Positions 3,870 through 63,802 of a DNA stretch of 64,000 bases are shown in pieces (within the stretch, counting starts at the first letter, position 1; each line of letters opens with the position of its first letter). A program made the translations under genes and the position numbers. The stretch spans positions 32,001 through 96,000 of the forward strand of contig SCQK01000014.1 in the NCBI GenBank assembly GCA_004321885.1, read 5' to 3'. The notes below the pieces were generated by a model. The model did no database searches and was not told the DNA's origin. It saw only the letters and a list, made by a program, of their open reading frames with translations. This DNA comes from Patescibacteria group bacterium (GTDB lineage Bacteria > Patescibacteriota > Patescibacteriia > Magasanikbacterales > GWA2-37-8).

Positions 3870-3895
3870 TGGGTTTATAAGTTTGGATATTTTTT

Positions 3896-5086: not shown

Positions 5087-6822
5087 AGATAATTACAGAC
5101 AAAATTGAGAAGTTTTTAACGGAAGCCGGAATCGTCGGTGAAATTAAATTTAAAAAACCCGATCCAAAAATATTGGATGTTTTTGATTACGATATTGCTA
5201 TTCCTTGTTTTAATTTAAAAACGAGGGTGCAAGATAACGCGGAAGGGGTCATGGTTGCGCAAAGGATTGTTGGTAGTTTGAAAAGCGCAAGGACAGAGCT
5301 GCCGTTTTTAGATGAAGTTAAACAAGTAAGTTCATACGTTAATATTACGTTAAATGCAGGCGAAATAGCTAATTTAGTTTTGCGGCAAGCCACAAAAAAA
5401 GATTTTGGCGCCAGCAAAACGGGCAAAGGAAAGAAAGTAATGGTGGAGTTCGCGCATCCCAACACGCACAAGCAATTTCACATCGGCCATTTGCGCAATA
5501 TCTGCACCGGCGAAAGCGTGGCGCGTATTTTGGAAAACGCCGGCCACAAAGTTATCCGCGCGAACTATCAGGGCGATGTGGGGATGCACATTGCAAAATG
5601 CCTGTGGGGCATTTTGAAATTTCCAATTTCCAATTTTCAATTTCCAAAAGCGATTGACGAGCGGGTGAAATTGCTTGGCGAAGCGTACGCGAAAGGGGCG
5701 CTGGCTTACGAAGAAAGCGAACTGGCCAAAAAAGAAATTGAAGTCATCAATGAAAAAATTTATTCTAAAAAAGATAAAGATATAAATAAACTTTACAAAG
5801 AAACGCGCGAATGGAGCTTGGAATATTTTGGTAAAATTTACAAACGAGTCGGCAGTAAGTTTGACCGGCTGTATTTTGAATCAGAGACATTCGCGCCGGG
5901 CAAGGACATAGTGCTGGTCGGTTTGAACAAAGGGATTTTCAAGGAAAGCCAGGGCGCGGTAATTTTTGAGGGAGAAAAATACGGCTTGCACAATCGCGTG
6001 TTTTTGAACAGCCGCGGCTTGCCGGTTTACGAAGCCAAAGATTTGGCGCTGGCGAGACTGCAATTTCAGGAATACAAACCAGAATATATTTTACACGTCG
6101 TGGCCAAAGAACAGACAGATTATTTCAAGGTTGTTTTCAAAGCCATGGAGTTTACTTTGCCCGAGAGCAAAGGCCGGGAAAAGCATTTGGTCTATGGCTG
6201 GGTGAGTTTGAAAGAAGGCAAGATGAGTTCGCGTTCGGGCAACGTGGTTTTGGGCGAGTGGCTTTTGGATGAAGTAAAAAAGAAAGTGGCTGAAGCAATG
6301 AAAGAGCACAATGTGCGGGATAGGGAAGGGGTGCTGGAAAAAGTGGCTATGGCCGCGGTGAAGTATGCTTTCCTGCGAACAAGCATCAGCAACGATATTG
6401 TTTTTGATATAAACCAGTCGGTGAGTTTAACCGGGGACAGCGGGCCGTATCTGCAATACATTGTCGCGCGCATTAGTAGCATCCTCAAAAAAGCAGGCAG
6501 GGGTTCGTTTGGTCTCCCCTTTAGAAGGGGAGATGCCCCGCAAGGGCAGAGGGGTATTGAACCGGCAGAAAAATCACTCCTTCTTTCTCTTTCCGAATTT
6601 CCCGAGGTCGCCCAAAGCGCGGCCGAAGAAACAGACCCGTCCAAAATCGCGCATTATCTGCTGGGACTGGCGCAATCATTCAATAGTTTTTACGGCCAGT
6701 GTCCGGTATTACCGGCCGATGAAGAAATGAAAAAATTCAGATTAGCGATAATTAGGGCGGTAAAAAATGTAATGGAAAAAGGATTGCGTTTGCTCGGCAT
6801 TGAGAGCGTGGAAGAGATGTGA
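5083..6822 (+). CDS. argS: Arginyl-tRNA synthetase
   Basis: VEFAHPNTHKQFHIGHLRN class-I motif, C-terminal DALR-type anticodon-binding region. ATG at 5083 overlaps the tyrS stop (ATGA). The ORF track start 5065 is a GTG extension. Confidence 0.85.
   Translation: MKIITDKIEKFLTEAGIVGEIKFKKPDPKILDVFDYDIAIPCFNLKTRVQDNAEGVMVAQRIVGSLKSARTELPFLDEVKQVSSYVNITLNAGEIANLVLRQATKKDFGASKTGKGKKVMVEFAHPNTHKQFHIGHLRNICTGESVARILENAGHKVIRANYQGDVGMHIAKCLWGILKFPISNFQFPKAIDERVKLLGEAYAKGALAYEESELAKKEIEVINEKIYSKKDKDINKLYKETREWSLEYFGKIYKRVGSKFDRLYFESETFAPGKDIVLVGLNKGIFKESQGAVIFEGEKYGLHNRVFLNSRGLPVYEAKDLALARLQFQEYKPEYILHVVAKEQTDYFKVVFKAMEFTLPESKGREKHLVYGWVSLKEGKMSSRSGNVVLGEWLLDEVKKKVAEAMKEHNVRDREGVLEKVAMAAVKYAFLRTSISNDIVFDINQSVSLTGDSGPYLQYIVARISSILKKAGRGSFGLPFRRGDAPQGQRGIEPAEKSLLLSLSEFPEVAQSAAEETDPSKIAHYLLGLAQSFNSFYGQCPVLPADEEMKKFRLAIIRAVKNVMEKGLRLLGIESVEEM
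6514..6534. repeat. In-frame palindrome TCTCCCC-TTTAGAA-GGGGAGA inside argS
   Basis: Perfect 7-bp arms. Encodes GLPFRRGDA in an ArgRS insertion region. Confidence 0.6.
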
Positions 6823-6928
6823 CATGCCATATAATATTCCTCTCCCTCTTAGGAGGAGGATAGAATAGGGGGTATTTGGGCAATCCACGCCCTTTTTTAA
6901 TTTATCCGCAACTTATCAACTGTACACC

Positions 6929-7675: not shown

Positions 7676-8857
7676 ATGAACCGGGAAAAAAATCTGAAGA
7701 CCATGCCGCGTGCGATTTTCGTATCGCACGCATTGCTCCCCGACTACAAGTCGAGTGAGCTCATCAGCCGCCGGCTCAAAGAACTCGGCCAGGGGTGGCC
7801 GGAAAAGGGGAAAGAGCCGGGGTTTATCCACTGGCTAACCTTCCCGGTGGTTCCGCCCCAGGAGAGTGGCGGTCGGCCGATTCTCGTGGATTTTCTTATC
7901 ATTCCGCTTTTCGCCGACGCCTACTTCAGGGCTATCGCCAGCGGCAAGGCCTATGTTTGGGCCTGCGAGGCTGTGGAAAGGGCCGTTGAGAACGCGCTCT
8001 TGGACGGCGTGTCGCCTGACGATATCTGGGTTGGTTGGGGGGCGTTCACTAAGATAGCCACTCATCACGGGAAGCTATTTTTGGAGAACAACCCCAAGTT
8101 CTCCTCAAATTCAACCCATGGAGACGCTGGCACTGGCGCGTTGGTGATAGAAGCTATCCTAGAAGCCGGCTTCAAGCCTGGCTTTAAGGTAGCGGTAATC
8201 GGCGCCAATGGGGCCATTGGTGACGCGGTTAGTCGCGTTCTTCCTTCCCTATCCCCGGCGAGTATCATGCTTGTGGGCAGGGAAGACGCGCCCGGGCAGG
8301 ACCGCAATTTTCTGCGTCTGCGGGAATTGGGCGTGTGCGTGGCGCAGAAAGTGAACGGCGGCCAAACCAAAGTCACCACGCACCAGGACAAGCGCACGGC
8401 CTGTCTGGAACAGGGAAGCGACCTGGTCATAGTCGCGACAAGCGGCAGTACGGTCGTTCGTCCCACTGAAGTTCCACATGGCGCGCTGGTGCTGGACATC
8501 ACGACGCCGAGCGCGTGCGGAACAGATCCGCGCGGGTGGGAGGGCAAGATGGTAGTTTTGGCCGGTTGCGGACAGTTTCTTCCGGGTGTTCTCCCGCTGG
8601 TCTTCGGCGAGACTGGCGGCGAGCCCATACTTGACGTCGGCGCCGGCGGCGCACTCTGCTTGTGGGGTTGCACGGGCGAAACAATCTCCCGTGCGGTTTT
8701 TGGGGTTCGCGGTCATCTCGCCGGACCCGAGATCCCCTTGGAAGCGGTTACGCAATGCGCCGAGCACTTTAGGGGGCTCGGCTTTGCGCCCCAGCCTTTC
8801 ACGGCGTTCGGAAAGTCCGTCGCGACCGACGCCGTGCGCCAGTTCGTCGCCGCGTAG
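7676..8857 (+). CDS. NAD(P)-binding oxidoreductase, shikimate/quinate-dehydrogenase-like fold. GC-rich gene.
   Basis: 393 aa. THGDAGTGALV...KVAVIGANGAIGDAVSRVL (GxxGxxG Rossmann after an N-terminal substrate domain). GC visibly higher than flanks (long antisense ORFs are a GC artefact). Followed by a strong terminator. Confidence 0.4.
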   Translation: MNREKNLKTMPRAIFVSHALLPDYKSSELISRRLKELGQGWPEKGKEPGFIHWLTFPVVPPQESGGRPILVDFLIIPLFADAYFRAIASGKAYVWACEAVERAVENALLDGVSPDDIWVGWGAFTKIATHHGKLFLENNPKFSSNSTHGDAGTGALVIEAILEAGFKPGFKVAVIGANGAIGDAVSRVLPSLSPASIMLVGREDAPGQDRNFLRLRELGVCVAQKVNGGQTKVTTHQDKRTACLEQGSDLVIVATSGSTVVRPTEVPHGALVLDITTPSACGTDPRGWEGKMVVLAGCGQFLPGVLPLVFGETGGEPILDVGAGGALCLWGCTGETISRAVFGVRGHLAGPEIPLEAVTQCAEHFRGLGFAPQPFTAFGKSVATDAVRQFVAA

Positions 8858-11225: not shown

Positions 11226-11987
11226 ATGTATGTTTACTTGTACGACAACTTTTTGCGCAAAGATAAATTTTCTTCCACAGTCAAAGCCATGGAAGTGCGG
11301 CTGACGGACTATGGCATTGCTGGCAAAATTTTGCGCCTGAACAATTATATAGACGCCAAGCAGGTGGTGGATGACGAAATCAAAAGAGGCGCCAAGACAG
11401 TGGTGATAGCGGGCAACGACGCCACTTTCGGCCAGATACTTTCGCGCAGCGCCACGTGCGACTGTATTTTCGGTTTTTTGCCGGTTGGCCCGGGCAACAC
11501 CATCGCCGAGGTTTTGGGCATCCCAGCCGGAGTAGAAGCCTGCGCAGTACTTTCGCGCCGCCTGAAAGAACGGCTGGACGTGGGCTGGGTAAACAGCCGT
11601 TATTTTGTCTCGCAATTGCACGTGCCGCCGGCCAAAATAGAAGTGATTTACGATGAAAAATTTAAGGTCTCCAGCGTTGATAAGATGGAAGTGGTAGTTT
11701 GCAATTTACAGCCGTATTTTTGGCAAGACGGCAAAAACGCGCCGCGCCGGGTGGTGCATCCGCAAGACGGCAAGTTAGAAGCCTTTTTGCGGCCGTTGAC
11801 AAAAAAGGGCTGGTGGGGGTATAAGTACGAGGAACCGAGCGTTTTTCCCTTTGAGGAAATGGAAATTGTGGGGCGCGAGGCCTTTGCCGTGCGGGCCGAC
11901 GGCAAGGTTTCCAAAGAAGTAAAGGTAAAAATCAAGCTGGCGCGCAACAAGGTGCGGATGATAGTGGGAAGGGAGAGAAAATTTTGA
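11226..11987 (+). CDS. Diacylglycerol-kinase-catalytic-domain (YegS/NAD-kinase-like) family protein, degenerate motifs
   Basis: VVIAGNDATFGQIL and GFLPVGPGNTIAEVLGIP resemble GGDGT...GxxPxGTGNDFAR of DAGK_cat. Start taken at first ATG (track start is TTG). Confidence 0.45.
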   Translation: MYVYLYDNFLRKDKFSSTVKAMEVRLTDYGIAGKILRLNNYIDAKQVVDDEIKRGAKTVVIAGNDATFGQILSRSATCDCIFGFLPVGPGNTIAEVLGIPAGVEACAVLSRRLKERLDVGWVNSRYFVSQLHVPPAKIEVIYDEKFKVSSVDKMEVVVCNLQPYFWQDGKNAPRRVVHPQDGKLEAFLRPLTKKGWWGYKYEEPSVFPFEEMEIVGREAFAVRADGKVSKEVKVKIKLARNKVRMIVGRERKF

Positions 11988-12339: not shown

Positions 12340-14337
12340 ATGATTCTGATAAAAAAAGACGACGAACTTGACATCGCGATAAGGAAAAGTCACAGTTACG
12401 CATTTTCAACGCCCCATAGCGGGTTGCATTTAATTGAAATCGTCGCGAAAGCCAATAGTTGGTGGCAAAATTTGAAAAGTTTTAAGTCATTTTTAAACGA
12501 CGATGATTTGGTGGTGAAAATAGATGAAACGGAATTTCCAAAATTAAGCGGCCGGAAGGGGTTATTCAATGGAGAGGCGGCGTGGAACGGCGACAACCTG
12601 AAAGGAAATCTAAAGACGGGAATATTTTTGGTTAGTTTGGCATCGGGCGCTCACGTGATAAATTTTTTCGCCGATCAAAAGCCGGTGTTAAAAGGTGTAA
12701 GAATTTATAAAATCGAGCAGGGAGAACCGTATGTGCCGGAAAAAAATAATCCGCCACAAGACGGAGACAGGCGGCAGTGGATGACAATCGCCCTGATTGA
12801 TTTGAGTTTGAAAAGTTTGTTTATCAGCGCTGTCGTTGGCGCTCATCAGAGAGATGACAGCGATATCAAGTTGATTGTTGACGGAAAAATTATACAAAAT
12901 GAGCAAAAAAATTCACACAAGAATTGGTTTTGGTGTGGTAATTTATCAAAAGGAGAACCAAGGGAACTCAACAAAGAGTTGAATCTGCCGAAAGGGTTGC
13001 ATTATGTGGAATTATGGGCGGACAAGACGCCAAAGTTATTGGAATTAAGAATCAATGTCGATAAAGATGATTCCAGAATTAAAGCCAAAATTATTTGGCA
13101 AACCGCCGCGTTAAGGAGAGAGCCAAATCAAAAGGCAGATACTGTAGCTGAGATTTCCGAAGGCAAACAAGTAATAATATTAGAAAAGGCGGTTTTGGGG
13201 AAAAGACCCGCGAACGTAAATGGCGTGTTACTTTCTTCCGACCGTTGGCACAAGGTTGAGTATGAAAACAATGTCGGGTATATTTATTCGGAGGCGGTAG
13301 AGATTGAGGGAGAGGATCCAAAAACGATTGAAAAATTTATTTTGAGCAAAGCCGAAGAAGTGGGAGCAGACGGATGCCTGATGGCGGCGATTGCCAAACG
13401 TGAATCGCATTTTTTCCCCTATGCGGTTTCCGGCGCTGACGCGAAGGGTTTGTTTCAAATGGTAAAAACGTCCCTGACCGATGTAAACGATATTTTTGAC
13501 AAAAAAATTGATAATCTTTTTAATATCGCGCAATCTACAGAAGCGGCAATTTTGTATTTTACAATAATTAGAGAAAGATATAAAAATAAGAACGATTTCC
13601 TTAGAAGATGCTTAGCCGCATGGAATTGGGGCAAAGGAAACGTTGATCCAGGTAATTCATTTTTAATGAAAAAATTGCCTGGCGAAACCCGGATATTTAT
13701 CAACGAGGTTCTAAAAAATTATAATGATTGCAAAAGTAGGTCTGTTTTAAAAGGAAAAATAAATTTATTATTCTTATTGATGAGCGGTTTTTTTATTTCC
13801 GCGATATTATTATCGTTTGCCATTTTTTTTGCTTTCGATGACAAAAATTATAAAGAGCCGCCGTCATATTATGGCGACAATTTTGTTTTAGCCGAGCATG
13901 AAATAGACGTGGATGGCGATGGAACAAAAGAAAAACTGGTCGTCATTAGAGACAAATTAAACTCAACATTTGGCATGACAAGAAACATTTTAGTGAGAAG
14001 TAACGGAAGGTTGCGTGAGTTGTCAAAAGAGGAGGGAAATTTTCTTTGGTGGAAGGTGGGCGATTTCAACGATAACGGCAAAGTTGATATCGCAATTCAT
14101 TATGGATATACCGGTAGCGGTGAGTTTGGAAAGTTTTATTTACAAGAGTGGAACGGAAAAGATTTTACGACTGTATTTATCAGAGAAGATGTTGACAATA
14201 AAGTAAATTTTGTTGATTTGAATCACGATGGAATGGAAGAGATTATTTATACTTATCGGCTGTCAAAGTGGAAGCCAGATAGGTATGATATTTATCAGTG
14301 GAATGCTTTTTCTTCCAAATTAATCCTATATAAGTAA
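12340..14337 (+). CDS. Large multidomain protein: unknown N-domain, SH3b-like, SLT lytic transglycosylase, TM helix, FG-GAP/VCBS-like repeats
   Basis: 665 aa. SLT motif AIAKRESHF...AKGLFQM. SH3b-like KADTVAEISEGKQVIILEKA...SDRWHKVEY. TM LLFLLMSGFFISAILLSFAIFFAF. C-terminal DVDGDGTKE / GDFNDNGKVDIAI / DLNHDGMEEII. Strongly AT-rich. Confidence 0.65.
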   Translation: MILIKKDDELDIAIRKSHSYAFSTPHSGLHLIEIVAKANSWWQNLKSFKSFLNDDDLVVKIDETEFPKLSGRKGLFNGEAAWNGDNLKGNLKTGIFLVSLASGAHVINFFADQKPVLKGVRIYKIEQGEPYVPEKNNPPQDGDRRQWMTIALIDLSLKSLFISAVVGAHQRDDSDIKLIVDGKIIQNEQKNSHKNWFWCGNLSKGEPRELNKELNLPKGLHYVELWADKTPKLLELRINVDKDDSRIKAKIIWQTAALRREPNQKADTVAEISEGKQVIILEKAVLGKRPANVNGVLLSSDRWHKVEYENNVGYIYSEAVEIEGEDPKTIEKFILSKAEEVGADGCLMAAIAKRESHFFPYAVSGADAKGLFQMVKTSLTDVNDIFDKKIDNLFNIAQSTEAAILYFTIIRERYKNKNDFLRRCLAAWNWGKGNVDPGNSFLMKKLPGETRIFINEVLKNYNDCKSRSVLKGKINLLFLLMSGFFISAILLSFAIFFAFDDKNYKEPPSYYGDNFVLAEHEIDVDGDGTKEKLVVIRDKLNSTFGMTRNILVRSNGRLRELSKEEGNFLWWKVGDFNDNGKVDIAIHYGYTGSGEFGKFYLQEWNGKDFTTVFIREDVDNKVNFVDLNHDGMEEIIYTYRLSKWKPDRYDIYQWNAFSSKLILYK

Positions 14338-14887: not shown

Positions 14888-14939
14888 AACCTCGCCCCAC
14901 CCCTCTTAATCAAGGGGAGTGAGGGGGAGGAGTAAAAAC

Positions 14940-31208: not shown

Positions 31209-31235
31209 GTCATTCCCGCGAAGGCGGGAATCCAG
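31209..31235. repeat. Intergenic palindromic element GTCATTCCCGCGAAGGCGGGAATCCAG
   Basis: ATTCCCGC-gaag-GCGGGAAT perfect hairpin with the same flanks as the 30324 copy. Confidence 0.55.
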
Positions 31236-34017: not shown

Positions 34018-34035
34018 GTCAATATTTGTTACGAG

Positions 34036-34108
34036 TCGGGCTGGCGGGACTTGAACCCGCGGCCTCATGGTCCCGAACCATGCGCGCTACCAACTGCGCT
34101 ACAGCCCG
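34036..34108 (-). tRNA. tRNA-Pro(CGG)
   Basis: Minus-strand CGGGCTG-TA-GCGC-AGTTGGTA-GCGC-G-CATGG-TTCGGGA-CCATG-AGGCC-GCGGG-TTCAAGT-CCCGC-CAGCCCG-A. Anticodon CGG. Confidence 0.85.
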
Positions 34109-34117
34109 AATTATTAC

Positions 34118-34384
34118 TTATTTCGTTTTGATTAGTTTATCATTAATAATTTTTTCAATATAGTCTCTTCTTTTTAATCTTTTAAGTTTGAGTTCAATTC
34201 GTCTCGCTTCCGTCGTTGTTTCGTAGTGCTGTTTAAATTTTATTATCCATGGGCCTTTATTTTTTGTTGAAGGTGTCTCCCCATTATTGTGTTCAATCAG
34301 CCGGTTTTCCGGATTGTTTGAAGACCCTATATAATACATTCCTGATTTAAGACTTTGCAAGATATAAACGTAAAAACCCTCCAT
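34118..34384 (-). CDS. Small free-standing GIY-YIG nuclease-domain protein
   Basis: 88 aa from MEGFYVYILQSLKSGMYYIGSSNNPENRLIEHN (GIY...YIG...R...E.N). Extremely AT-rich. Sits between tRNA-Pro and a partial tRNA-Pro copy. Confidence 0.7.
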   Translation of the reverse strand: MEGFYVYILQSLKSGMYYIGSSNNPENRLIEHNNGETPSTKNKGPWIIKFKQHYETTTEARRIELKLKRLKRRDYIEKIINDKLIKTK

Positions 34385-34400
34385 AATTGACTTTTTAATA

Positions 34401-34459
34401 GAACCCGCGGCCTCCCCGACGTACCGTCGGGGCGCGCTACCAACTGCGCTACAGCCCGA
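34401..34459 (-). pseudogene. Partial tRNA-Pro copy (acceptor 5' strand + D-arm + T-arm start) with anticodon arm replaced by CCCCGAC-GTACC-GTCGGGG hairpin
   Basis: 28 nt (34432-34459) identical to the 5' portion of tRNA-Pro (34082-34109) and gaacccgcggcc (34401-34412) identical to 34055-34066. No 3' acceptor strand. Confidence 0.6.
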
Positions 34460-34463
34460 TTGT

Positions 34464-34509
34464 ATGGATTCCCGCTTTCCCGCCAAAGGCGGGCAGGCGC
34501 GGGAATGAT
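34464..34509. repeat. Third GTCATTCCCGC...GCGGGAATCCA palindromic element (inverted orientation) with nested CCCGCC-AAAG-GCGGG hairpin
   Basis: Reverse complement reads ATCATTCCCGCgcctgCCCGCCTTTGGCGGGaaaGCGGGAATCCA. Confidence 0.5.
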
Positions 34510-34620
34510 ACCGACAGTAGGGTATCACGTTTTTTTGCGCTTTTCAAGGGGTAAAATTTGTGATAGAATATGCCCTGTCCGCTGGATTACCAGCGACAGA
34601 TAATTTTTACCCCCACCCAA

Positions 34621-34643
34621 CCTCCCCCTTTTAAGGGGGGAGG
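34621..34643. repeat. GC-rich palindrome CCTCCCCC-TTTTAA-GGGGGGAGG upstream of pilT start
   Basis: Member of the CTCCCC-TTAxAAA-GGGGAG family. Lies in the N-terminal extension of the track ORF before MNIESY. Confidence 0.55.
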
Positions 34644-36312: not shown

Positions 36313-36361
36313 TTACCCATTCTTAATCCTCCCCTTGTAAAGAGGAGGGTAATACAGCAAT

Positions 36362-39300
36362 ATGCGAAGAGCGAAAATAATATTTTTCATTATTATCTTC
36401 GCCGCGTTCAGCTCGGCCGCCTTTGGCGGTCGTGTTTTGTCTTTTGACACCAATATCGCTCATCCAAACATCGCGACATTGGCCGTAAAGCTTTACAATG
36501 AGAATTTTGACCCGGATTTAACCGAGGAACAGACGCGTTGGATAGAGCAGGGAGCTGTTGCCGAGGACACGCCCAACCGGTGGTACAACCATTTTTACGA
36601 CCCGGTCTACAATCGTGGCATCTGGTTTGGCAAACAACATTTATCAGCCAAAAATTGGGCTGTTAATCCCCGAGCTCAAACTGGTTTTGCCTTGGGCGAC
36701 AAGAGCTGGCAAAGAGCGCTTGATGATTTTAGAAATAGTGATGAGGAAAAGGCATACAGGGCCCTGGGGCATATTATTCACCTTATTTCAGATATGGCTG
36801 TGCCGGCGCATACCCGAGACGACATTCATCCGCTCGGCGATTCGTTTGAGCAATTTGTGAAAAAGAATTGGGCCAGCGCGACAAAGAATTTGCGCTATGG
36901 AATGATATCTGTATCTGATTTAGATTCAGCTTTTGATTCTGTGGCCAATTATTCAAACAATAATTTTTATAGTGATGATACGATTGAAAATAAAAAATAT
37001 CAGAATCCAGATTTGAATCACATTATACTAAAATATGTGGAAGTTGGAAATGGCATTTCTTATAAATTTTTAGTCAATTCAGTTGGTGGTCAAGAAAGTT
37101 TGCTTTGTAGAACTAATAGCAATAAGAATTGGTTAGACACTCTTGGGGATGACATTCTAAAAGAGTGCAAAGTTGGTGATGATCTCGTTCTCACCGACTA
37201 CTCCCGCCACCTGCTCCCAAAAGCCATCGGTTACAGCGCCGGAATTATTAAACTATTTTTTGACCAAGCCAAGAGTGATAAGGAAGTGGGTAATTTGCCC
37301 GGCAAAAGAACTAGTTTTTCCGGATACCTTGATCAATTTCTTGGTTTCGCTGTCTCGGGAGCGGAAAAATTATACAGCGTGATTAAGATAGCGTTAGGAA
37401 TAGAGCCGGCTTATTCCGAGGGAAGCGCGGAGATTGAGGAACAAGCGCCCTCCCTCCCGCCAGAGGCAGGCAAGCATCAAGGGGAGGGAACGACCACAAC
37501 CACACCAACCACGCCAACCACGACCAACGTCGCGCAGACCACGACCAAACCCAAACCCCCCGCCACCATAAAAAAAGCGGTCGGGAGAAAGACCGGGGCG
37601 TCTGGCGCGCCGGTCGCTGGCTCCATAGTCCCCGACTTAGTCGGGGCTGTGGAGCCCAATGCCAGCACCCTGGCTCCACAGCCTCCTGCGGGGGACAATG
37701 GAGCCAGCCAAGAAGGAACGACGACCACGCCTGTGTATTTTCCTCCATCGTCAAGAGACGGGGGAGCGTATCCGCCAAATACCCCTCCCCTAATAGGGGA
37801 GGGAGATGTTGTGCCTACCACCACCCCGACACCCACCACCACCCCGTCTTCTACAACTACCCCTTCGTCCACCACCACCCCAACCCCCTCCCCCACCACC
37901 ACTCCCACCAGCACTCCGGCTCTGCCACCGCCACCGCTCGTCATCAGCGAAATCGCCTGGGCCGGCACCTCGGCCGCCAGGTCCAACAACGAATGGCTGG
38001 AGCTTTACAACAACTCCACCTCGTCAATAGATTTCACCTCGGGCTGGAAAATTTTTGTTTCCGGCGCCCAGCTCAACATCTCCAATTTTGTTAATCCAGT
38101 CATTTTACCAAAAACATATTACCTGTTGGAACGCACCGACGATTTTACGGTCAAAGAAATTTCCGCGGACGCGATTTACACCGGCGCCCTAAACAATAAT
38201 GGCGCGAAAGTGGAACTCGTCAATCCAAGCGGAGAAACCATAGACACCGTGGACGGCTCCTCGGGCTGGTTCGCGGGTCAGGCCAGTCCCAGTTACGCTA
38301 GTATGGAAAGAAAAGACCTCACCGCCAGCGGTACGAGTCCCGGCAACTGGCAATCCAGCATTGGCGGGCGCGCCACTGGCACGAGCGATGAAATGCCGCC
38401 CAAGCCCATCATGGGCTCGCCCAAACGCCCCAATTTCGGCTACATTGTGCTTACTGGTACCCAAGCCCAAACCACCCGCACACTCACCACAGACAACAGT
38501 CCCTATCTTTTGTGGAGTTACACTATTCCAGCCGGCTTTACATTAAACATCAATCCCGGCGTGGTGATAAAAAGTTACACCCAAAGCGCGGTGATGATTG
38601 TAGATGGGACGCTGAATGTTGGCGGGGGAGACAATAAAGTCATCTTCACCTCGGGCAAAGACCAGTCTTTCACCAGTCCCGACCTCAACCTGATAGACAT
38701 CAATTATCTTTGGACAACTCCCGGGCCGGCTGAAAAAGATTGGCAGGGGCTGTGGTTCAAGCCCGGCTCCCAGGGCAACATCGCCAATACAGAAATCAGA
38801 TACGCGGGCAAAGAGTTTTACCCCACCGGAGGCCCGGCCATGTCCCAGGGCATTCGCGCCGAATCCGGGCTTTCCCTATCAAACTCCACCATCGCCAACT
38901 CCGGCTCCGCGCTTATCTTTCTCCAAAATGCTTCTTCCACCATTACTAACACCAACTTCACCGGCTCCGATCTGGCCATAGAAGCCAACAATTCCCGGCT
39001 CACAATCAACGGCGCGCACTTCACGGGCTTTGGCTCACAGGGCCCTTTGCAAATCAAAGACGCCTGGCCCGAATTTTCCAATCTCACCTACACCACCGGC
39101 ACTGTGCCTTATGCCCGTTTGTACATGGTAAAAACCAGCGCCCCGCAGACCACGGCCAAAAAAGAAATCAATTACCTCTTTGACAACATTGAAGTGGCGT
39201 CTTCCACCACCTTAAACATTGAACCCGGCGCCAACGTCAAAATGACCAACAGCTCCATACTCACGGTCAATGGCGTTCTCAATGCCAATGGCACGCCCAC

Positions 39301-39805
39301 CGACCCCGTCAGTATCGGTCAATTTACCCCGGCCATTCCCAATACTTTATGGGGTTCACTCTACTTCACGGGCAATACTTCCACCATCAAATACACCAAC
39401 ATCTCTGGCGGCGGGCACATACCATCGGGCAGTGGCGTATTCGGCGCCATCACGGCGCAAAATGCCGAAGTCATCATTGAAAACAGCGCCATAAAAAACA
39501 CGGAACAGCCGGGCAATGCCATACAATCCGCCAACGCAGTCATTAGAATAAAGAACAGCGAGATTTCCAATGACACCAAGACGCGCGAAGACCCGCCCGC
39601 GGGCCCGTCGCCTTACAATATCGGGGTCAGCATCGGCGGCGGCAGTCTTCACCTGGACAACACCCTGTTCAAAAATCTCAACATCGGCTTGCAGGGAACA
39701 TACATATCTGGTAGTTTGCCACAGGTGGAGCTGGTCAACATGAATACATCCACTGCGTATTTTCAGAATGTGGGGCGGGTGATGAATCCGTTGGTATGGT
39801 TTTAG
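36362..39805 (+). CDS. Giant secreted surface protein: N-terminal Zn-phospholipase-C/S1-P1-like domain, P/T-rich linkers, lamin-tail domain, parallel beta-helix repeats
   Basis: Signal peptide MRRAKIIFFIIIFAAFSSAAFG. TTTTPTTPTTT and TPTPTTTPSSTTTPSSTTTPTPSPTTTPTSTP linkers. LTD motif EWLELYNNSTSSIDF...NNNGAKVELVNPSGETIDTVD. NxTIxNSGS beta-helix repeats. Confidence 0.6.
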   Translation: MRRAKIIFFIIIFAAFSSAAFGGRVLSFDTNIAHPNIATLAVKLYNENFDPDLTEEQTRWIEQGAVAEDTPNRWYNHFYDPVYNRGIWFGKQHLSAKNWAVNPRAQTGFALGDKSWQRALDDFRNSDEEKAYRALGHIIHLISDMAVPAHTRDDIHPLGDSFEQFVKKNWASATKNLRYGMISVSDLDSAFDSVANYSNNNFYSDDTIENKKYQNPDLNHIILKYVEVGNGISYKFLVNSVGGQESLLCRTNSNKNWLDTLGDDILKECKVGDDLVLTDYSRHLLPKAIGYSAGIIKLFFDQAKSDKEVGNLPGKRTSFSGYLDQFLGFAVSGAEKLYSVIKIALGIEPAYSEGSAEIEEQAPSLPPEAGKHQGEGTTTTTPTTPTTTNVAQTTTKPKPPATIKKAVGRKTGASGAPVAGSIVPDLVGAVEPNASTLAPQPPAGDNGASQEGTTTTPVYFPPSSRDGGAYPPNTPPLIGEGDVVPTTTPTPTTTPSSTTTPSSTTTPTPSPTTTPTSTPALPPPPLVISEIAWAGTSAARSNNEWLELYNNSTSSIDFTSGWKIFVSGAQLNISNFVNPVILPKTYYLLERTDDFTVKEISADAIYTGALNNNGAKVELVNPSGETIDTVDGSSGWFAGQASPSYASMERKDLTASGTSPGNWQSSIGGRATGTSDEMPPKPIMGSPKRPNFGYIVLTGTQAQTTRTLTTDNSPYLLWSYTIPAGFTLNINPGVVIKSYTQSAVMIVDGTLNVGGGDNKVIFTSGKDQSFTSPDLNLIDINYLWTTPGPAEKDWQGLWFKPGSQGNIANTEIRYAGKEFYPTGGPAMSQGIRAESGLSLSNSTIANSGSALIFLQNASSTITNTNFTGSDLAIEANNSRLTINGAHFTGFGSQGPLQIKDAWPEFSNLTYTTGTVPYARLYMVKTSAPQTTAKKEINYLFDNIEVASSTTLNIEPGANVKMTNSSILTVNGVLNANGTPTDPVSIGQFTPAIPNTLWGSLYFTGNTSTIKYTNISGGGHIPSGSGVFGAITAQNAEVIIENSAIKNTEQPGNAIQSANAVIRIKNSEISNDTKTREDPPAGPSPYNIGVSIGGGSLHLDNTLFKNLNIGLQGTYISGSLPQVELVNMNTSTAYFQNVGRVMNPLVWF
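37619..37656. mobile_element. 38-nt palindromic element GGCTCCATAGTCCCCGACTTAGTCGGGGCTGTGGAGCC inserted in frame (encodes [13 protein letters not shown])
   Basis: 100% identical, in inverse orientation, to 62514-62551 inside guaA. Both are read in the same frame by the host genes. Confidence 0.7.
37783..37803. repeat. In-frame palindrome CCCTCCCC-TAATA-GGGGAGGG
   Basis: Perfect 8-bp arms. Encodes PPLIGEG in the surface protein. Confidence 0.55.
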
Positions 39806-41298
39806 ATAAAATTTTCAAAAAAATTCAGGCAGTGGCCCAAAAAAATAAGACCCCGTGCTATGTGGTGGGCGGTTTTGTGCGCGATATGCTGATGGACAAG
39901 GCGCGGGAAAAAGACGTGGATTTTGTGATTTTGGGAAGCGGGCTGGGGTTTGCCAAAAAATTTGACCAGGCCATGAAGCAAGAGGGGAGTTTAATTGAGT
40001 TTCCGGATTTTGACACGGCGCGGTATATTTTGACCCCTTCTAAATCCTCCCCTTATCAAGGGGAGGATAACGAGCAAATCGTGCTGGAGTTCGCGGGCGC
40101 GCGAGGGGAAGAATATGACGAGAAAAGCCGCAAGCCCAGGGTAAAGCCGGCCACGTTAAAACAAGATTTAGAGCGCCGCGATTTTACCATCAACGCGATG
40201 GCCATGAGTATTGACGACTACCCCTCCGGCCGTCCGCCACAGGGCGGACGGCCGCCTCCCCTTATAAAGGGGAGGCTGATAGACCCGTTCGGCGGGCAGG
40301 AAGATTTGAAAAATAAAATTCTGCGCACGCCGCTTGACCCGGACAAAATATTTTCCGAGGACCCTTTGCGCATGATGCGCGCCGCGCGCTTCGCGGGCCA
40401 GCTTGGTTTTGCCATAGACACTTTTGCTTTGCAGGCCATTTACCGCAACCGCGAGCGCCTGAAAATCGTTTCGGCCGAGCGCGTGCAAGAGGAGCTGTTA
40501 AAAATGCTTTCCACGCCCGAGCCATCTATTTGTCTGGCTCTGCTTTTTCAAACCCACCTGTTGGATTTGGTGTTGCCAGAGGTGGCCAAGCTGGACGGGG
40601 TGGAAGAAATTTACGGCCACCAGCACAAAAACAATTTATCACACACCTTTAAAGTGGTGGACAATATCGCCGAGCGCTCGCCCAAAGTCATGTTGCGCTT
40701 TGCCGGCCTGCTGCACGACATCGGCAAGGCGTCCACTAAAAAATTTATTCCGCGTCAGGGCTGGACTTTTTACCAGCACGAGCACATGGGCAAAAAAATG
40801 GTTTATCAAATCGGCAAGCGCCTGCGCTTGTCCACGGACCACACGGATTATTTGGCCAAAATGGTGCGCTGGCACCAGCAGCCGATAAGCCTGATGGACA
40901 AGGGCATCACGGATTCGGCGGTGCGTCGCCTGATTGTGAATTTGGGTGATGAGTTGGAAGATTTGTTGATACTTGGCCGGAGCGACATTACCACGGGCAA
41001 TCCGTTGAAAAAAGAAAAACGCCTGGGCAATTACGACCGACTGGAAAAGCGCATTGCCGAGGTTTTGGAAAAAGATAAATTGCGCGCCTTTCAGTCGCCG
41101 GTGCGCGGGGAAGAAATCATGAAAGAGTGCGGCTTGAAAGCCGGGCCGACAGTGGGAAAAATAAAAGACGCGATAGAGGAGGCCATTCTTGACGGAATCA
41201 TACCAAATGAGTATGATAAAGCGAGGGAGTACTTGTTTGAAATTAAGAATAAGTATCTGGAAAAAGCCCAGGATTGGGAAAGAGTGAAAAATATATGA
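39796..41298 (+). CDS. cca: CCA-adding tRNA nucleotidyltransferase with HD domain
   Basis: VVGGFVRDMLM...DVDFV (PolyA_pol head), C-terminal HD motif FAGLLHDIGK. Contains two adjacent palindromic inserts. Confidence 0.8.
   Translation: MVLDKIFKKIQAVAQKNKTPCYVVGGFVRDMLMDKAREKDVDFVILGSGLGFAKKFDQAMKQEGSLIEFPDFDTARYILTPSKSSPYQGEDNEQIVLEFAGARGEEYDEKSRKPRVKPATLKQDLERRDFTINAMAMSIDDYPSGRPPQGGRPPPLIKGRLIDPFGGQEDLKNKILRTPLDPDKIFSEDPLRMMRAARFAGQLGFAIDTFALQAIYRNRERLKIVSAERVQEELLKMLSTPEPSICLALLFQTHLLDLVLPEVAKLDGVEEIYGHQHKNNLSHTFKVVDNIAERSPKVMLRFAGLLHDIGKASTKKFIPRQGWTFYQHEHMGKKMVYQIGKRLRLSTDHTDYLAKMVRWHQQPISLMDKGITDSAVRRLIVNLGDELEDLLILGRSDITTGNPLKKEKRLGNYDRLEKRIAEVLEKDKLRAFQSPVRGEEIMKECGLKAGPTVGKIKDAIEEAILDGIIPNEYDKAREYLFEIKNKYLEKAQDWERVKNI
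40046..40068. repeat. In-frame palindrome TCCTCCCC-TTATCAA-GGGGAGGA in cca
   Basis: Perfect 8-bp arms, encodes SSPYQGED. Confidence 0.6.
40227..40276. repeat. Tandem in-frame palindromes CGGCCGTCCGCC-acag-GGCGGACGGCCG + GCCTCCCC-TTATAAA-GGGGAGGC in cca
   Basis: 12-bp and 8-bp perfect stems sharing one G. Encode SGRPPQGGRPPPLIKGRL between conserved Cca blocks. Confidence 0.6.
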
Positions 41299-52299: not shown

Positions 52300-53631
52300 T
52301 CAAATTTTTATTTCTTTGATTTTATTTTGTAAAGTTTGTTTTGATTTTACTCGCACCCGCACAAATTCCGGCGTATATCCCGCGAAGTAGCCGGATTTTT
52401 TTTGTTCAAACAGTACTGGGCGGGTTTTGCCGGTGAATTTGGCCGCGAATTTTTTGGCCTCGGCTTTGGAAATTTTGAGCAGTTTTTTTACGCGTTCGGT
52501 TTTGATTTTGTCCTGCACTTGGTTTGGCATTTTGGCCGCGGCAGTGCCAGGGCGCGGAGAAAAAGGGAAAACGTGTATTTTGGCAAAGCCCCCGCCAAAG
52601 GCGGGTCCGTCTTGGGCGGACATTTTTTTTACAAACGCGCAGGTCTCGGTGAATTCTTTTTCGGTCTCGCCCGGGAAGCCGACGATAATGTCGGTGGTAA
52701 AAGAAAACAGGGGATTGGCCTGGCGCAGTTTTTGAACAATTCCAAGATATTGTTTCGCGTTATATCCGCGCCGCATCCGTTTGAGCATTGTGTCCGAGCC
52801 CGATTGCAAGGACAAATGCCAATGCGGCATCAATCTGTTTTGTCCCCCCTTTTTAAGGGGGGAATAAAAGGGGGGTAAGAATAATTTTATTAATTTTTCC
52901 GAAATCAGCCGCGGGTCCAGCGAACCGAGCCGGATGCGCTCTATTTTTGTTTCTCGTAAAATTTTTTTCAGCAGTTCGGCCAAGTCTCCCCCACTGCCAG
53001 AGGGGGGGACGAAGGGGGGGTGGGAGCTGTCTTTGTATTGGCAAATATTTACTCCGGTCAGTACCGCTTCTTTATAGCCGTCTTTTTCCGCTTCTTTGAT
53101 TTTTTTTATCACCGCCTCGGATGGCACACTTCGCGTTCGGCCGCGGAAAGATGGAATAATACAATAGGCGCAGTTAAAATTACAGCCGGTTTGGATTTTG
53201 ATGAGAGTGCGTGTTCTATCATTGCGTAGCCGAGCGGTCGGATGTGTTCGTAGCGCCTTATGCCGCCGCAGCGGCATGGCCGAGGCCTCGCGGCCGAGGG
53301 AAGCGAGAACACATCCGACCGCTCCTCTGCGAGCTTCGCAATGGCTCACAACTTCCTCATTCCCTCTCGCCACAAAATCAATCTCGGGCAAATCCTTGTT
53401 TTCCAGACAGCCAACCGCGATTACGTACGCCCCGCGCCGTTTGGCCCGCCGAATCATCTCGCGCGTGGTCTGACTGGCGTCCACGGTCACTCCGCAGGCG
53501 CGCACCACGGCTACGTCTTCGTGCGCGCCAAAAAGCACGACAGAAAAACCTCGCTGTACGAGGTCTTTTTTCAGTTCTTCTGTCTCGGCTTGATTCAATT
53601 TGCACCCCAGGGTGTGGAATGAAATTTTCAC
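52300..53631 (-). CDS. Radical-SAM methylthiotransferase, MiaB/RimO/MtaB family (MtaB-like) carrying palindromic inserts
   Basis: N-terminal MTTase ISFHTLGCKLNQAETE, radical SAM IQTGCNFNCAYCIIP, C-terminal TRAM. 443 aa, inflated by inserts. Confidence 0.75.
   Translation of the reverse strand: MKISFHTLGCKLNQAETEELKKDLVQRGFSVVLFGAHEDVAVVRACGVTVDASQTTREMIRRAKRRGAYVIAVGCLENKDLPEIDFVARGNEEVVSHCEARRGAVGCVLASLGREASAMPLRRHKALRTHPTARLRNDRTRTLIKIQTGCNFNCAYCIIPSFRGRTRSVPSEAVIKKIKEAEKDGYKEAVLTGVNICQYKDSSHPPFVPPSGSGGDLAELLKKILRETKIERIRLGSLDPRLISEKLIKLFLPPFYSPLKKGGQNRLMPHWHLSLQSGSDTMLKRMRRGYNAKQYLGIVQKLRQANPLFSFTTDIIVGFPGETEKEFTETCAFVKKMSAQDGPAFGGGFAKIHVFPFSPRPGTAAAKMPNQVQDKIKTERVKKLLKISKAEAKKFAAKFTGKTRPVLFEQKKSGYFAGYTPEFVRVRVKSKQTLQNKIKEIKI
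52843..52863. repeat. In-frame palindrome TCCCCCC-TTTTTAA-GGGGGGA in the MtaB-like gene
   Basis: Encodes (minus strand) FYSPLKKGG. A second imperfect one at about 52985-53010 encodes HPPFVPPSGSGG. Confidence 0.5.
53220..53344. mobile_element. About 125-bp highly structured palindromic insertion with 18-bp perfect terminal inverted repeats inside the MtaB-like coding sequence
   Basis: GAGCGGTCGGATGTGTTC (53232-53249) and its exact reverse complement (53307-53324). Outer CATTGCG/CGCAATG. Internal ATGCCGC-cgca-GCGGCAT. GC-rich. Translated as a 40-aa insert between the MTTase and radical-SAM domains. Confidence 0.55.
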
Positions 53632-61972: not shown

Positions 61973-63802
61973 TTACTCCCACTCAATAGTTCCGGGTGGT
62001 TTGTTGGTGAGGTCGTAGAAGATGAAGTCCACGGCGTTTAGAGCGTGGATTTTTTTGATGATTTTTTTCAGAGTGGGCGAGGGTATGACGCCAAACGAGA
62101 CGGTCATCGCTTCTTCTGATTCCACGGGTCGCAGGACAATTGATTCGCCGTGCTTGTGCCCAAACGGCACGAGCACCGTGGGCATTTGCCAGATTTTTTG
62201 GCATTGCTTGTCGGTCAAAATGGCGCTGTCGGCGATGTCATCTATTTTTCGCAAAAGGTCCAGCCGTTTTTTGGTAAGATACGCTTTTTTCAGCGTGGCT
62301 TTTGGCAATGATTTTTTGTCGCCGGAAACAAGCAGTAGAACGCGGTTGATGTCTTTGTGGGCGTTGGTGATTTTAGGAGAAAGGGATTGATAATACCCCC
62401 ACCCGGCCTCCCCCTTATAAAGGGGGAGGGGACCTGTGATAACGGCGGGGTGGGCGTAGGAGCGCTCGTCGCCTTGCACGCCCACGGATTTGATGGGGAG
62501 ACGCCAAATTGTTGGCTCCACAGCCCCGACTAAGTCGGGGACTATGGAGCCAGCGTCGTTTGATCCTTCCGAGCACAGACAGCGAATGGCCAGGCCCGGG
62601 CCCGGAAAGGGATGGCGGTTTATCAATTTTTGCGGCAGACCGAGCTTAAGGCCGATGGCGCGCACTTCGTCTTTGTACAAATCCTTAATCGGCTCTATGA
62701 TTTTTCCTTCGGCGATCATTTGTTTTATCCGCGGTACGCGATTGTGATGCGTTTTTATGACGTCGGCGTTTTTGGTGCCGCCCGATTCAATAGTGTCGGG
62801 ATAAATGGTGCCTTGGCCGACCAACCATTTGTCTCCGGTCAATTTTTTTCTACCAGACCCGCCTTTGGCGGGTTCGGCCATTACTTTGTCCACAATATCC
62901 AAAAACAAATCGCCGATGATTTTTCTTTTTTGTTCCGGATCAGACACGCCTTTGAGCGCGGATAAAAATTCTTTTTCGGCGTTATACACCCGCAAGTTGT
63001 CTCCCAGTCGCTTCAGAGCCGCTATGATTTTTTTTGTCTCATCCAACCGCATCAGGCCGCTGTCAATGTGCAAGCCGAAAACCCTTTTTTCGCCAAGCAC
63101 TTTTCGCAATAGGGCGAAACAAACCGTGGAATCAACGCCGCCGGAGACGAGCAAGAAAACATTTTTACCGCCCGCTTCCTTTTTTATATTTTTTTCAATT
63201 TGATCCAGCATTGTCTCTGTCGTCCAGTTTTTTTCCGCCCCGCAAATATTTAAAATAAAATTGGCCAGAATTTTTTTTCCTTCTTTCGTGTGATTTACTT
63301 CCGGATGAAACTGAAAGCCGAAGAACTTTTTTGATAAATTTTGCATGGCCGCCACCGAACGGTTGCCGGTTGAAGCGATTGGCGTAAAACCGAACGGCAG
63401 TTTGTCCACGTGATCGCCGTGGCTCATCCAGACAACGGTATTTTTACTTACGCCCGAAAAAATCGGCGAGGCGCTGACGGATAATTTCGCCAAACCGTAT
63501 TCACGCGCCTTGCCCGATTCAACGCGCCCGCCAAAAAAATCTGCCATCAACTGATGCCCGTAGCACAGACCCAAAATCGGCGCGCTGAGCGTAAAAATTT
63601 TTTTATCAAAAGGCAAACGCGCGTCGCGCACCAGCGAACGCGGACCGCCGGAAAGGATGATTCCACACGCGTTTTTCAATCGTTCGGCTTTGACGTTATT
63701 CGGGTAAATACGTGAAATAACGCCCAGTTCGCGCACGCGACGGGCGATGAGATGGGTGTACTGGGAACCGAAATCAAGGATGGCGATTTCACTTTTTGGC
63801 AT
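61973..63802 (-). CDS. guaA: GMP synthase (glutamine-hydrolysing), with in-frame palindromic inserts
   Basis: GATase [22 protein letters not shown]...GLCYGHQLM...HGDHV. ATP-PPase [14 protein letters not shown]-terminal dimerisation domain. ATG 63802. Confidence 0.85.
62407..62429. repeat. In-frame palindrome CCTCCCCC-TTATAAA-GGGGGAGG in guaA
   Basis: Encodes (minus strand) [11 protein letters not shown]. Confidence 0.55.
62514..62551. mobile_element. Second copy of the 38-nt palindromic element (encodes [13 protein letters not shown] in guaA)
   Basis: Reverse complement is identical (38/38) to 37619-37656. The flanking CGCTGG is also shared. Confidence 0.7.

Follow-up and report, generated by a model that had tools for sequence, protein, structure and literature searches.

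The 64-kb stretch of DNA analysed here (hereafter the window; from contig SCQK01000014.1 of a Patescibacteria genome) contains two identical copies of a 42-nt palindromic block, one inside the gene of a secreted surface protein and the other inside guaA, encoding the glutamine-hydrolysing GMP synthase. The block represents a new family of repeats in groundwater Patescibacteria (the candidate phyla radiation, CPR) which resemble the repetitive extragenic palindromic (REP) elements and the REPINs, i.e. REP doublets that form hairpins. This is a known phenomenon in a new lineage, and the first-pass annotation of the window, which had likened the block to the Rickettsia palindromic elements (RPEs), was essentially right. 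The block is probably a small, non-autonomous REP/REPIN-like palindromic repeat, which persists within coding sequence only if it is in frame and positioned in a tolerant loop.

The window has a G + C content of 49% and its 58 open reading frames (ORFs) were scanned. Its gene content (aminoacyl-tRNA synthetases, mur genes, primase, sigma-70, PilT and FtsX proteins) is ordinary bacterial housekeeping. A 38-nt palindrome (GGCTCCATAGTCCCCGACTTAGTCGGGGCTGTGGAGCC) had been reported at 37619-37656 on the plus strand and as an exact reverse complement at 62514-62551, in host genes lying on opposite strands (ORFs 36362-39805 (+) and 61973-63802 (-)), so that it is read in the same frame in both. All of this was confirmed; allowing up to 3 mismatches, the 38-mer has 2 matches in the window and 0 in 100 dinucleotide-preserving shuffles. 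The exactly shared block was found to be 42 nt long (CGCTGGCTCCATAGTCCCCGACTTAGTCGGGGCTGTGGAGCC) and consists of CGCT followed by the 38-nt nested hairpin; its flanks are unrelated (Table 1). Shared bases upstream of the 38-mer had indeed been noted before, as 6 nt (CGCTGG); only the 4 nt CGCT are shared in addition, the first GG of the 38-mer having been counted twice. Likewise, the hairpin was correctly recognised and its extent was not: the unit is 42 nt rather than 38 nt, and in the surface-protein gene it is one half of an inverted doublet of ~95 nt.

The phase in which the block is read is the same in the two host ORFs, and the outcome is an identical 14-residue peptide. As 4 of the 6 frames of the 42-mer are stop-free, the shared frame has a chance of about 1 in 4. 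In the predicted fold, the 5' CGCT is unpaired and the other 38 nt make up a nested hairpin that contains a single bulged T and a single T.G pair. Folded as RNA, the block has a predicted energy of -32.2 kcal/mol (z = -6.8); folded as DNA, the value is -17.6 kcal/mol (z = -7.5). Searching Rfam at the gathering score and at a permissive E-value gave only sub-threshold chance matches to the element; to our knowledge, there is no Rfam model for RPEs, which are DNA repeats.

Further copies were sought with the pattern AGTCCCCGACNNNGTCGGGGCT (19 fixed bases) in one genome per GTDB species (596 Gb) and in JGI/ENA metagenome contigs. The genome scan returned 5 loci, one of which (L002) contains the element; another (L003) contains only its inner hairpin. 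L002 is contig SCQE01000103.1 (9.6 kb, 49.9% G + C) from the bin 'Nitrospirae bacterium DP16D_bin.35', DP16D being a groundwater well at Oak Ridge. Its copy is identical to those of the window (42/42) and is intergenic, starting 3 nt after the stop codon of a gene for a LamG-repeat surface protein. L002 and the window have a second hairpin family in common (GCCTACTAC...GTAGTAGGC), and L002 probably belongs to the same organism or a very close one and was mis-binned. The metagenome scan revealed one further true copy, on a 1.9-kb contig from Hainich groundwater (L017, 38% G + C). This copy matches at 39 of the 42 positions; the loop reads CAA instead of TTA (2 of the 3 loop bases differ) and the first base of the tag is a T instead of a C. 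It is intergenic as well, with the stop codon of one gene 9 nt before it and creD 48 nt after it, and is antisense to both. Neither the core pattern nor the outer hairpin gave a match in viral contigs, and no phage vector was identified. A nhmmer search with a profile of the 4 copies did not detect further diverged copies in the window or the fetched loci, with the exception of the inverted partners described below.

The best named relatives of the L017 CreD protein were, in a homologue search, those of Parcubacteria, Falkowbacteria and Patescibacteria. A non-CPR host for this contig, which would have made the distribution cross-phylum, was considered and dropped. L002 is labelled Nitrospirae and L003 (CAZHFX010000023.1) Gammaproteobacteria, with a tetranucleotide correlation to the window of r = 0.84 and 0.94, respectively. 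Both labels are probably binning errors; composition and common hairpin families point to Patescibacteria. Two other loci, L005 (2238-2789) and L007 (3572-3593), contain a tandem array with a period of ~177 nt and AGTCCCCGACAACGTCGGGGCT in each unit. Nothing but the short stem links this array, which is present in a Bacteroidales metagenome-assembled genome and in a metagenome contig related to it, to the element.

Because the further copies at L002 and L017 have sharp boundaries and unrelated flanks, the block is a dispersed repeat. Judged from the sequences, it is present at at least four unrelated sites in Patescibacteria of two aquifers, two of them coding and two just 3' of ORFs. The first-pass annotation had proposed a count of further copies and had named in advance two other origins for the block, conserved protein sequence and an assembly chimera; the intergenic copies on other contigs contradict both. 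An assembly or binning artefact, by a chimeric join or a collapsed repeat, might be suspected since the source is a metagenome-assembled genome, and since L002 was placed in a Nitrospirae-labelled bin though its composition and hairpins resemble those of the window. However, on both sides of each genic copy the host ORF goes on in frame and in orthologous sequence, the element was found in independent assemblies from Oak Ridge and Hainich, and a 42-nt repeat is shorter than a typical read and unable to bring about a join that preserves both genes. We consider an artefact extremely unlikely. A one-off ectopic gene conversion or repair patch, in which 42 nt were copied between two genes of the window with neither a repeat family nor mobility involved, would fit the presence of only two full copies in 64 kb that are 100% identical, and a replacement patch would also predict that the guaA loop is not simply 14 residues longer (see below). 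It does not fit the same block, with the same boundaries, at L002 and L017, which are unrelated loci from different aquifers, nor the doublet organisation common to the window and L002, and is very improbable.

In both proteins the peptide lies in a variable segment. GuaA is a long-type enzyme whose dimerisation domain is duplicated, and its nearest relatives (~70% identity) are from Candidatus Magasanikbacteria; the identical database entry, TAN32702.1, is listed under 'Patescibacteria group bacterium' and encoded on a contig of 159,463 nt. In an alignment of 30 GuaA sequences, the peptide was present in none of the other 29. The insert is located between two invariant motifs, in a segment that spans 13-21 residues across orthologues, with much longer versions in some lineages. 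The alignment with human GMPS covers GuaA residues 5-412 and 433-609, leaving 413-432 unaligned, and in the AlphaFold model (mean pLDDT 82.8) residues 421-430 average 61 versus 91 and 86 in the flanking blocks. The first four residues of the insert (417-420) fall within the high-confidence block 411-420. Alignment and model thus place the insert, as the first-pass annotation had expected, in a predicted loop of GuaA, and its lineage specificity was borne out as well, the peptide being absent from all 29 GuaA and all 11 aligned surface-protein orthologues. The closest GuaA orthologue on a long contig (P0003, L022) has a short loop at the site, SNEVATEIKPNLLK, encoded by unstructured DNA, and no coding hairpins were found in the 21.8-kb neighbourhood of this guaA gene.

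The surface protein consists of a conserved N-terminal domain, a hypervariable linker rich in S/T/P/G, a Lamin Tail Domain (Pfam LTD, aa 523-631) and a C-terminal region. The same architecture was found in many proteins in a search of 1.84 billion representatives, and a PDB search with the N-terminal domain gave no match. When 5.8 billion protein clusters were searched for shared words with the 4 stop-free translations of the element, 14 candidates emerged, none with E<=10; this is weak evidence, because a match of 14 amino acids is unable to reach significance in that database. The peptide is rare among the proteins searched. A conserved peptide motif, with selection acting on the protein rather than on the DNA, would explain why both proteins carry the same 14 residues in the same frame. 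The motif is present in none of the aligned orthologues, the identity extends at the nucleotide level to all synonymous positions, two of the copies are non-coding and the DNA is a near-perfect palindrome, which leaves this explanation with a practically negligible probability.

Two side observations concern GuaA itself. At residues ~311-318 it has an 8-residue insertion, PAKGGSGR, which is absent from the 29 aligned orthologues and from human GMPS (block mean pLDDT 53). In addition, a GuaA homologue of 792 aa from the CPR (P0043) contains DUF559 (PF04480) and MTES_1575 (PF18741) endonuclease domains within the protein, which suggests an in-frame insertion of an endonuclease gene into guaA. 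Among the purine genes of L019, such an endonuclease gene is present as a free-standing one (3599-4030).

Directly 3' of the copy in the surface-protein gene, a diverged second unit is present in inverted orientation (37670-37709), which was overlooked in the first-pass annotation. It has ~80% identity to the reverse complement of the first unit (blastn, minus strand; nhmmer E=0.0013). Such inverted doublets of ~90-95 nt are found in the window (37615-37709) and in L002 (4582-4670), whereas the copies in guaA and L017 are singlets. Both doublets end in terminal inverted repeats; that of L002 is 14 nt long and perfect (TCGCTGGCTCCATA...TATGGAGCCAGCGA), and that of the window is near-perfect. 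The second unit of L002 is without the inner hairpin and reads CTGGCTCCACACGCAGTATGGAGCCAGCG, an un-nested outer hairpin. As RNA, the doublets could adopt a three-way fold with a predicted energy of -57.8 kcal/mol (L002) and -66.8 kcal/mol (window).

A rival explanation is that the element is a functional RNA under selection, for example an mRNA stabiliser at 3' ends, an RNase barrier or a pause site for transcription or translation, with the genic copies being regulatory. Three of the four copies are in the sense orientation relative to the gene transcribed through or into them, and the single internal mismatch is a U.G wobble in the sense strand versus a C.A in the antisense strand (-32.2 vs -29.6 kcal/mol). 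The L017 hairpin differs only in its loop, with identical stems despite the G + C contents of the contigs of 38% and 49%, and REPs are thought to act as RNA elements 3' of ORFs (PMC3733652). However, the L017 copy is antisense to both flanking genes, and the wobble asymmetry counts as one observation because all copies are near-identical by descent. There is no U-tract, and thus no intrinsic terminator, in the 3' flanks of the 4 copies (CAATGC, AACAAT, TAAATG and TTAATG), nor an Rfam family at the gathering score. It is difficult to imagine a regulatory need that guaA, a surface protein, a LamG gene and a creD neighbour would have in common. On balance, selection for an RNA function is an unlikely explanation.

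The stem of the inner hairpin, CCCCGAC/GTCGGGG, was matched 4 times in the window against 0 expected. It is found in three outer contexts: the 42-mer, a hairpin GTCATTCTGA...GAAGAATC in frame in the valyl-tRNA synthetase (ValRS) gene, and a tRNA-Pro fragment. In L003 and L014, which are the same sequence (r = 0.94 to the window in tetranucleotide composition), the inner hairpin AGTCCCCGACTTAGTCGGGGCT is present alone, followed by CTTTAATTT. From its build, the 42-mer looks like one small hairpin that was inserted into the loop of another and was then propagated as a unit, since all 4 copies have the same junctions. A second case of a hairpin within a hairpin is seen elsewhere in the window, where the hairpin ATTCCCGC-GAAG-GCGGGAAT at 31212-31231 is found again at 34465-34500, this time with CCCGCCTTTGGCGGG, an additional inner hairpin, in its loop. 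Members of the ATTCCCGC/ATCCCCGC hairpin family were also found in L019 and L020.

For the movement of the repeat, its translation and its neutrality we infer the following course. The element would move as a hairpin of single-stranded DNA on which an enzyme encoded in another part of the genome acts, and would usually land just downstream of a stop codon. Genic copies would persist only where selection tolerates them. Here, tolerance would be favoured by a length of exactly 14 codons, by the 4 of 6 stop-free frames and by the hypervariable segments hit, i.e. the inter-domain loop of GuaA and the low-complexity linker of the surface protein. The hairpin would then be translated as a harmless 14-residue loop.

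Several points weigh against the REP/REPIN-like reading. A high copy number is the usual hallmark of REPs and RPEs, and the 19-fixed-base pattern yielded no more than 4 copies and 2 degraded partners in 596 Gb of genomes and the JGI metagenomes; the 64-kb window itself holds 2 full copies and 1 degraded copy. Since L002 and the window may be from the same organism, the number of independent genomes may be only two. Among the 58 ORFs of the window there is neither a RAYT/IS200-type nor another transposase. The tag is CGCT (TGCT in L017) rather than GTAG or CGTC. Alignment of the 4 copies with their flanks showed no direct repeat, and hence no target-site duplication, around any of them; a conserved target motif was not convincing either, with only a loose AAT 1-3 nt downstream. 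The stems are invariant in all copies, so that they provide no covariation evidence. Finally, GuaA minus the 14 codons would be left with a 7-residue loop, and because this is shorter than the loop of any orthologue, the event in guaA was a replacement or was followed by later trimming, and not a pure insertion.

Table 1. Units of the element, their host genes and other hairpins (positions in the window, except for L020).
Feature	Position	Strand	Host or context	Details
Host gene 1, secreted surface protein	36362..39805	+		1147 aa
Host gene 2, guaA (glutamine-hydrolysing GMP synthase)	61973..63802	-		609 aa; real start MPKSEIAIL; identical to TAN32702.1
Copy A, 42-nt unit	37615..37656	+	Surface (LTD) protein, inter-domain linker, aa 418-432	In frame
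Inner mini-hairpin CCCCGAC-TTA-GTCGGGG	37630..37646	+	Inside loop of outer GGCTCCA/TGGAGCC hairpin	
Spacer between doublet units	37657..37669	+		13 nt, CAATGCCAGCACC; homologous to 18-nt spacer of L002 (alignment)
Inverted diverged second unit, CTGGCTCCACAGCCTCCTGCGGGGGACAATGGAGCCAGCC	37670..37709	-	Tail-to-tail with copy A, tags outward	Read as LAPQPPAGDNGASQ
Copy B, 42-nt unit, singlet	62514..62555	-	guaA, GuaA residues A417-P430	In frame
CCCCGAC/GTCGGGG stem sites	3031-3047, 34414-34432, 37630-37646, 62524-62540		First in ValRS, second in tRNA-Pro fragment	
Hairpin GTCATTCTGACCCCGACTCAGTCGGGGGAAGAATC	3018-3058		ValRS ORF 1173-3869	In frame; encodes DVILTPTQSGEES
Second family, CCTCCCC-loop-GGGGAGG	6513-6533, 6839-6859, 14900-14920, 34621-34643, 36328-36348, 37783-37803, 40044-40068, 40254-40276, 52843-52863, 62407-62429			
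Two abutting perfect hairpins, CGGCCGTCCGCC-ACAG-GGCGGACGGCCG and GCCTCCCCTT-ATA-AAGGGGAGGC	40227-40276		CCA-adding enzyme ORF 39796-41298	
Inverted repeat, 107 nt	53225-53331	-	MiaB-like ORF 52300-53631	25-nt arms, 88% complementary, 57 nt apart
L020 repeat, hairpins ATCCCCGC..GCGGGGAT and ATTCCCG..CGGGAAT	11293-11363, 12783-12852	+ (guaA), - (dus)	guaA and dus, respectively	85-94% identity

The element is not the only hairpin in coding DNA of the window, which carries other small, GC-rich ones. There are ~32 perfect hairpins with a stem of >=8 bp (raw count 62, versus 5-10 in shuffles), and many of these lie in frame within housekeeping genes, i.e. those of ValRS, the arginyl-tRNA synthetase (ArgRS), the CCA-adding enzyme, a MiaB-like enzyme and GuaA. 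A second family, CCTCCCC-loop-GGGGAGG, is often preceded by TACCCC.ACCC; the pattern has 7 matches against 0.17 expected, and some copies are intergenic. In-frame copies of this family encode LPFRRGD in ArgRS, PPLIGEG in the surface protein, SSPYQGED and PPLIKGRL in the CCA-adding enzyme, SPLKKGG in the MiaB-like enzyme and PLPLYKGEA in GuaA (62407-62429). In the CCA-adding enzyme, three hairpins coincide with 9-aa insertions relative to the solved homologue 3wfo; SGRPPQGGRPPPLIKGRL, the product of the two abutting hairpins, is flanked by the conserved motifs NAMA and IDPFGG, and 3wfo is 9 residues shorter at this place. The SPLKKGG hairpin corresponds to a 10-aa insertion of the MiaB-like enzyme relative to the solved homologue 7mjv, and the 107-nt inverted repeat in the same gene encodes RRGAVGCVLASLGREASAMPLRRHKALRTHPTARLR, between the UPF0004 and radical-SAM domains. 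The hairpin in ArgRS causes no net change in length.

Some of these hairpins recur in other CPR sequences. The ValRS hairpin is 92% identical to an intergenic copy in L014 (1008-1046). A 21-mer of the surface-protein gene, CCCTCCCCTAATAGGGGAGGG (37783-37803), is present as an identical 21-mer in frame in trmD of L014 (8346-8366, ORF 7791-8510), where it is part of the segment NPALYPSPNRGGARGGVLKS before the conserved EYPQYTRP motif of TrmD. Other CPR guaA genes contain different strong palindromes in the same two loops (P0064, with HCERSEAIP...AAVAALPRN, P0017 and P0014). In the P0017 genome (L020, Magasanikbacteria-like), a two-hairpin repeat of ~70 nt is present both in guaA and in the adjacent dus gene.

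Around one of the CCCCGAC stem sites, the region 34035-34528 on the minus strand contains a partial copy of tRNA-Pro (28 nt + 13 nt identical to the gene) in which the anticodon arm is replaced by the hairpin CCCCGACGGTACGTCGGGG. This copy is followed by a small GIY-YIG nuclease ORF and then by an intact tRNA-Pro(CGG). The region looks as if a GIY-YIG cassette had entered a tRNA gene and the gene had been duplicated.

A more far-reaching reading, which we find doubtful, can be built on these hairpins. Patescibacteria of the Magasanikbacteria-Falkowbacteria group would carry ultra-small hairpin modules (17-42 nt) that insert into each other's loops and into the loop-coding parts of essential genes, are exchanged between lineages and are moved by neither a RAYT nor a classical transposase; they might be a main source of the many lineage-specific insertions in CPR proteins. 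Possible movers would be a small nuclease, such as that encoded by the GIY-YIG ORF adjoining the CCCCGAC hairpin (34118-34432), or an RNA intermediate. Behind the idea of exchange between lineages is the finding that contigs with 38% and 49% G + C, from aquifers on two continents, carry the same nested 42-mer, differing at 3 bases.

Proteins of CPR/Patescibacteria are known for lineage-specific insertions, the origin of which is rarely explained. Several insertions in essential enzymes (GuaA, the CCA-adding enzyme and the MiaB-like enzyme) can now be traced to dispersed palindromic DNA. A process that was first reported in Rickettsia is thereby extended to a very different group whose genomes are reduced. 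For annotators, it follows that odd peptides in CPR proteins, such as PLxKGE, HCERSEAI and the 14-residue peptide of the element, are to be taken as repeat-derived and not as functional motifs. A nested hairpin that differs at 3 of 42 bases between two aquifers and two base compositions is also a tractable marker for the movement of tiny elements. The importance of the finding would rise if the mobilising mechanism proved unusual or if the phenomenon were general across the CPR.

The first-pass annotation called the block RPE-like, and this holds for its behaviour, being in frame in an essential gene, and not for family membership (42 nt vs 100-150 bp), the block being nearer to the short tagged REPs and REPINs. 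RPEs are described as palindromic selfish repeats in frame in unrelated housekeeping genes, with an extra peptide that fits the fold of the protein (Ogata et al. 2000, as cited in PMC10969869). According to the same summary, they measure ~100-150 bp, encode 30-50 aa and form several families in a small, host-dependent genome (PMC10969869). Their copy number is, as far as the published summaries go, in the dozens, with 44 insertions reported in R. conorii. Set against these descriptions, the element is similar in being in frame in two unrelated protein-coding genes and in forming a stable hairpin (z = -6.8); it differs in length (42 nt and 14 aa, the doublet being ~95 nt), in its few known copies and in its lineage, in a comparison made by description only.

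REPs consist of an unpaired tag and a palindrome, have GTAG or CGTC (TGTC/CCTC) at one end and are 20-40 bp long (Di Nocera et al. 2013, PMC3733652). They are found as singlets or as inverted dimers with a larger fold, the intergenic copies at <=20 nt from the 3' end of the upstream ORF; occasionally they lie wholly inside ORFs, including tRNA synthetase genes, to which they add ~10-30 residues (PMC3733652). RPE-4 and RPE-6 of R. conorii are themselves short REPs of the CGTC type (PMC3733652). The element is likewise a palindrome of ~40 nt that bears a short unpaired tag on one side only, and its units are single or paired in opposite orientation, as in the doublets of the window and L002. Two of its 4 copies lie 3 nt and 9 nt after a stop codon and the other two inside genes. 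It differs from REPs by its unpaired head, which is CGCT in 3 copies and TGCT in L017 instead of GTAG/CGTC, by a stem far longer than 8-9 bp with a nested hairpin and a bulge, and by its host, Patescibacteria/CPR, for which no reports of such palindromic elements were found in the literature searched.

[quoted passage not shown] However, no parent insertion sequence was found, the doublet of ~90 nt is smaller than QMITE, and the 42-nt unit also occurs on its own. Because a target-site duplication is absent, the element is not a typical MITE. An intrinsic terminator was rejected because of the lack of a U-tract 3' of the hairpin, and the site was absent from a terminator scan; an integron attC site and a CRISPR repeat were rejected on sequence grounds. 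The small dispersed repeats (SDR) of cyanobacteria, attributed to Elhai et al. 2008, are reportedly hairpin modules of ~20 nt nested in other repeats. The CCCCGAC mini-hairpin, nested in three outer contexts, and the second nested case at 34465-34500 are similar to these, in other sequences and another phylum, and it is only suggested that the mini-hairpin is mobile by itself. Set apart by its tag and its length, the element is outside both the RPE family and the GTAG/CGTC families of REPs.

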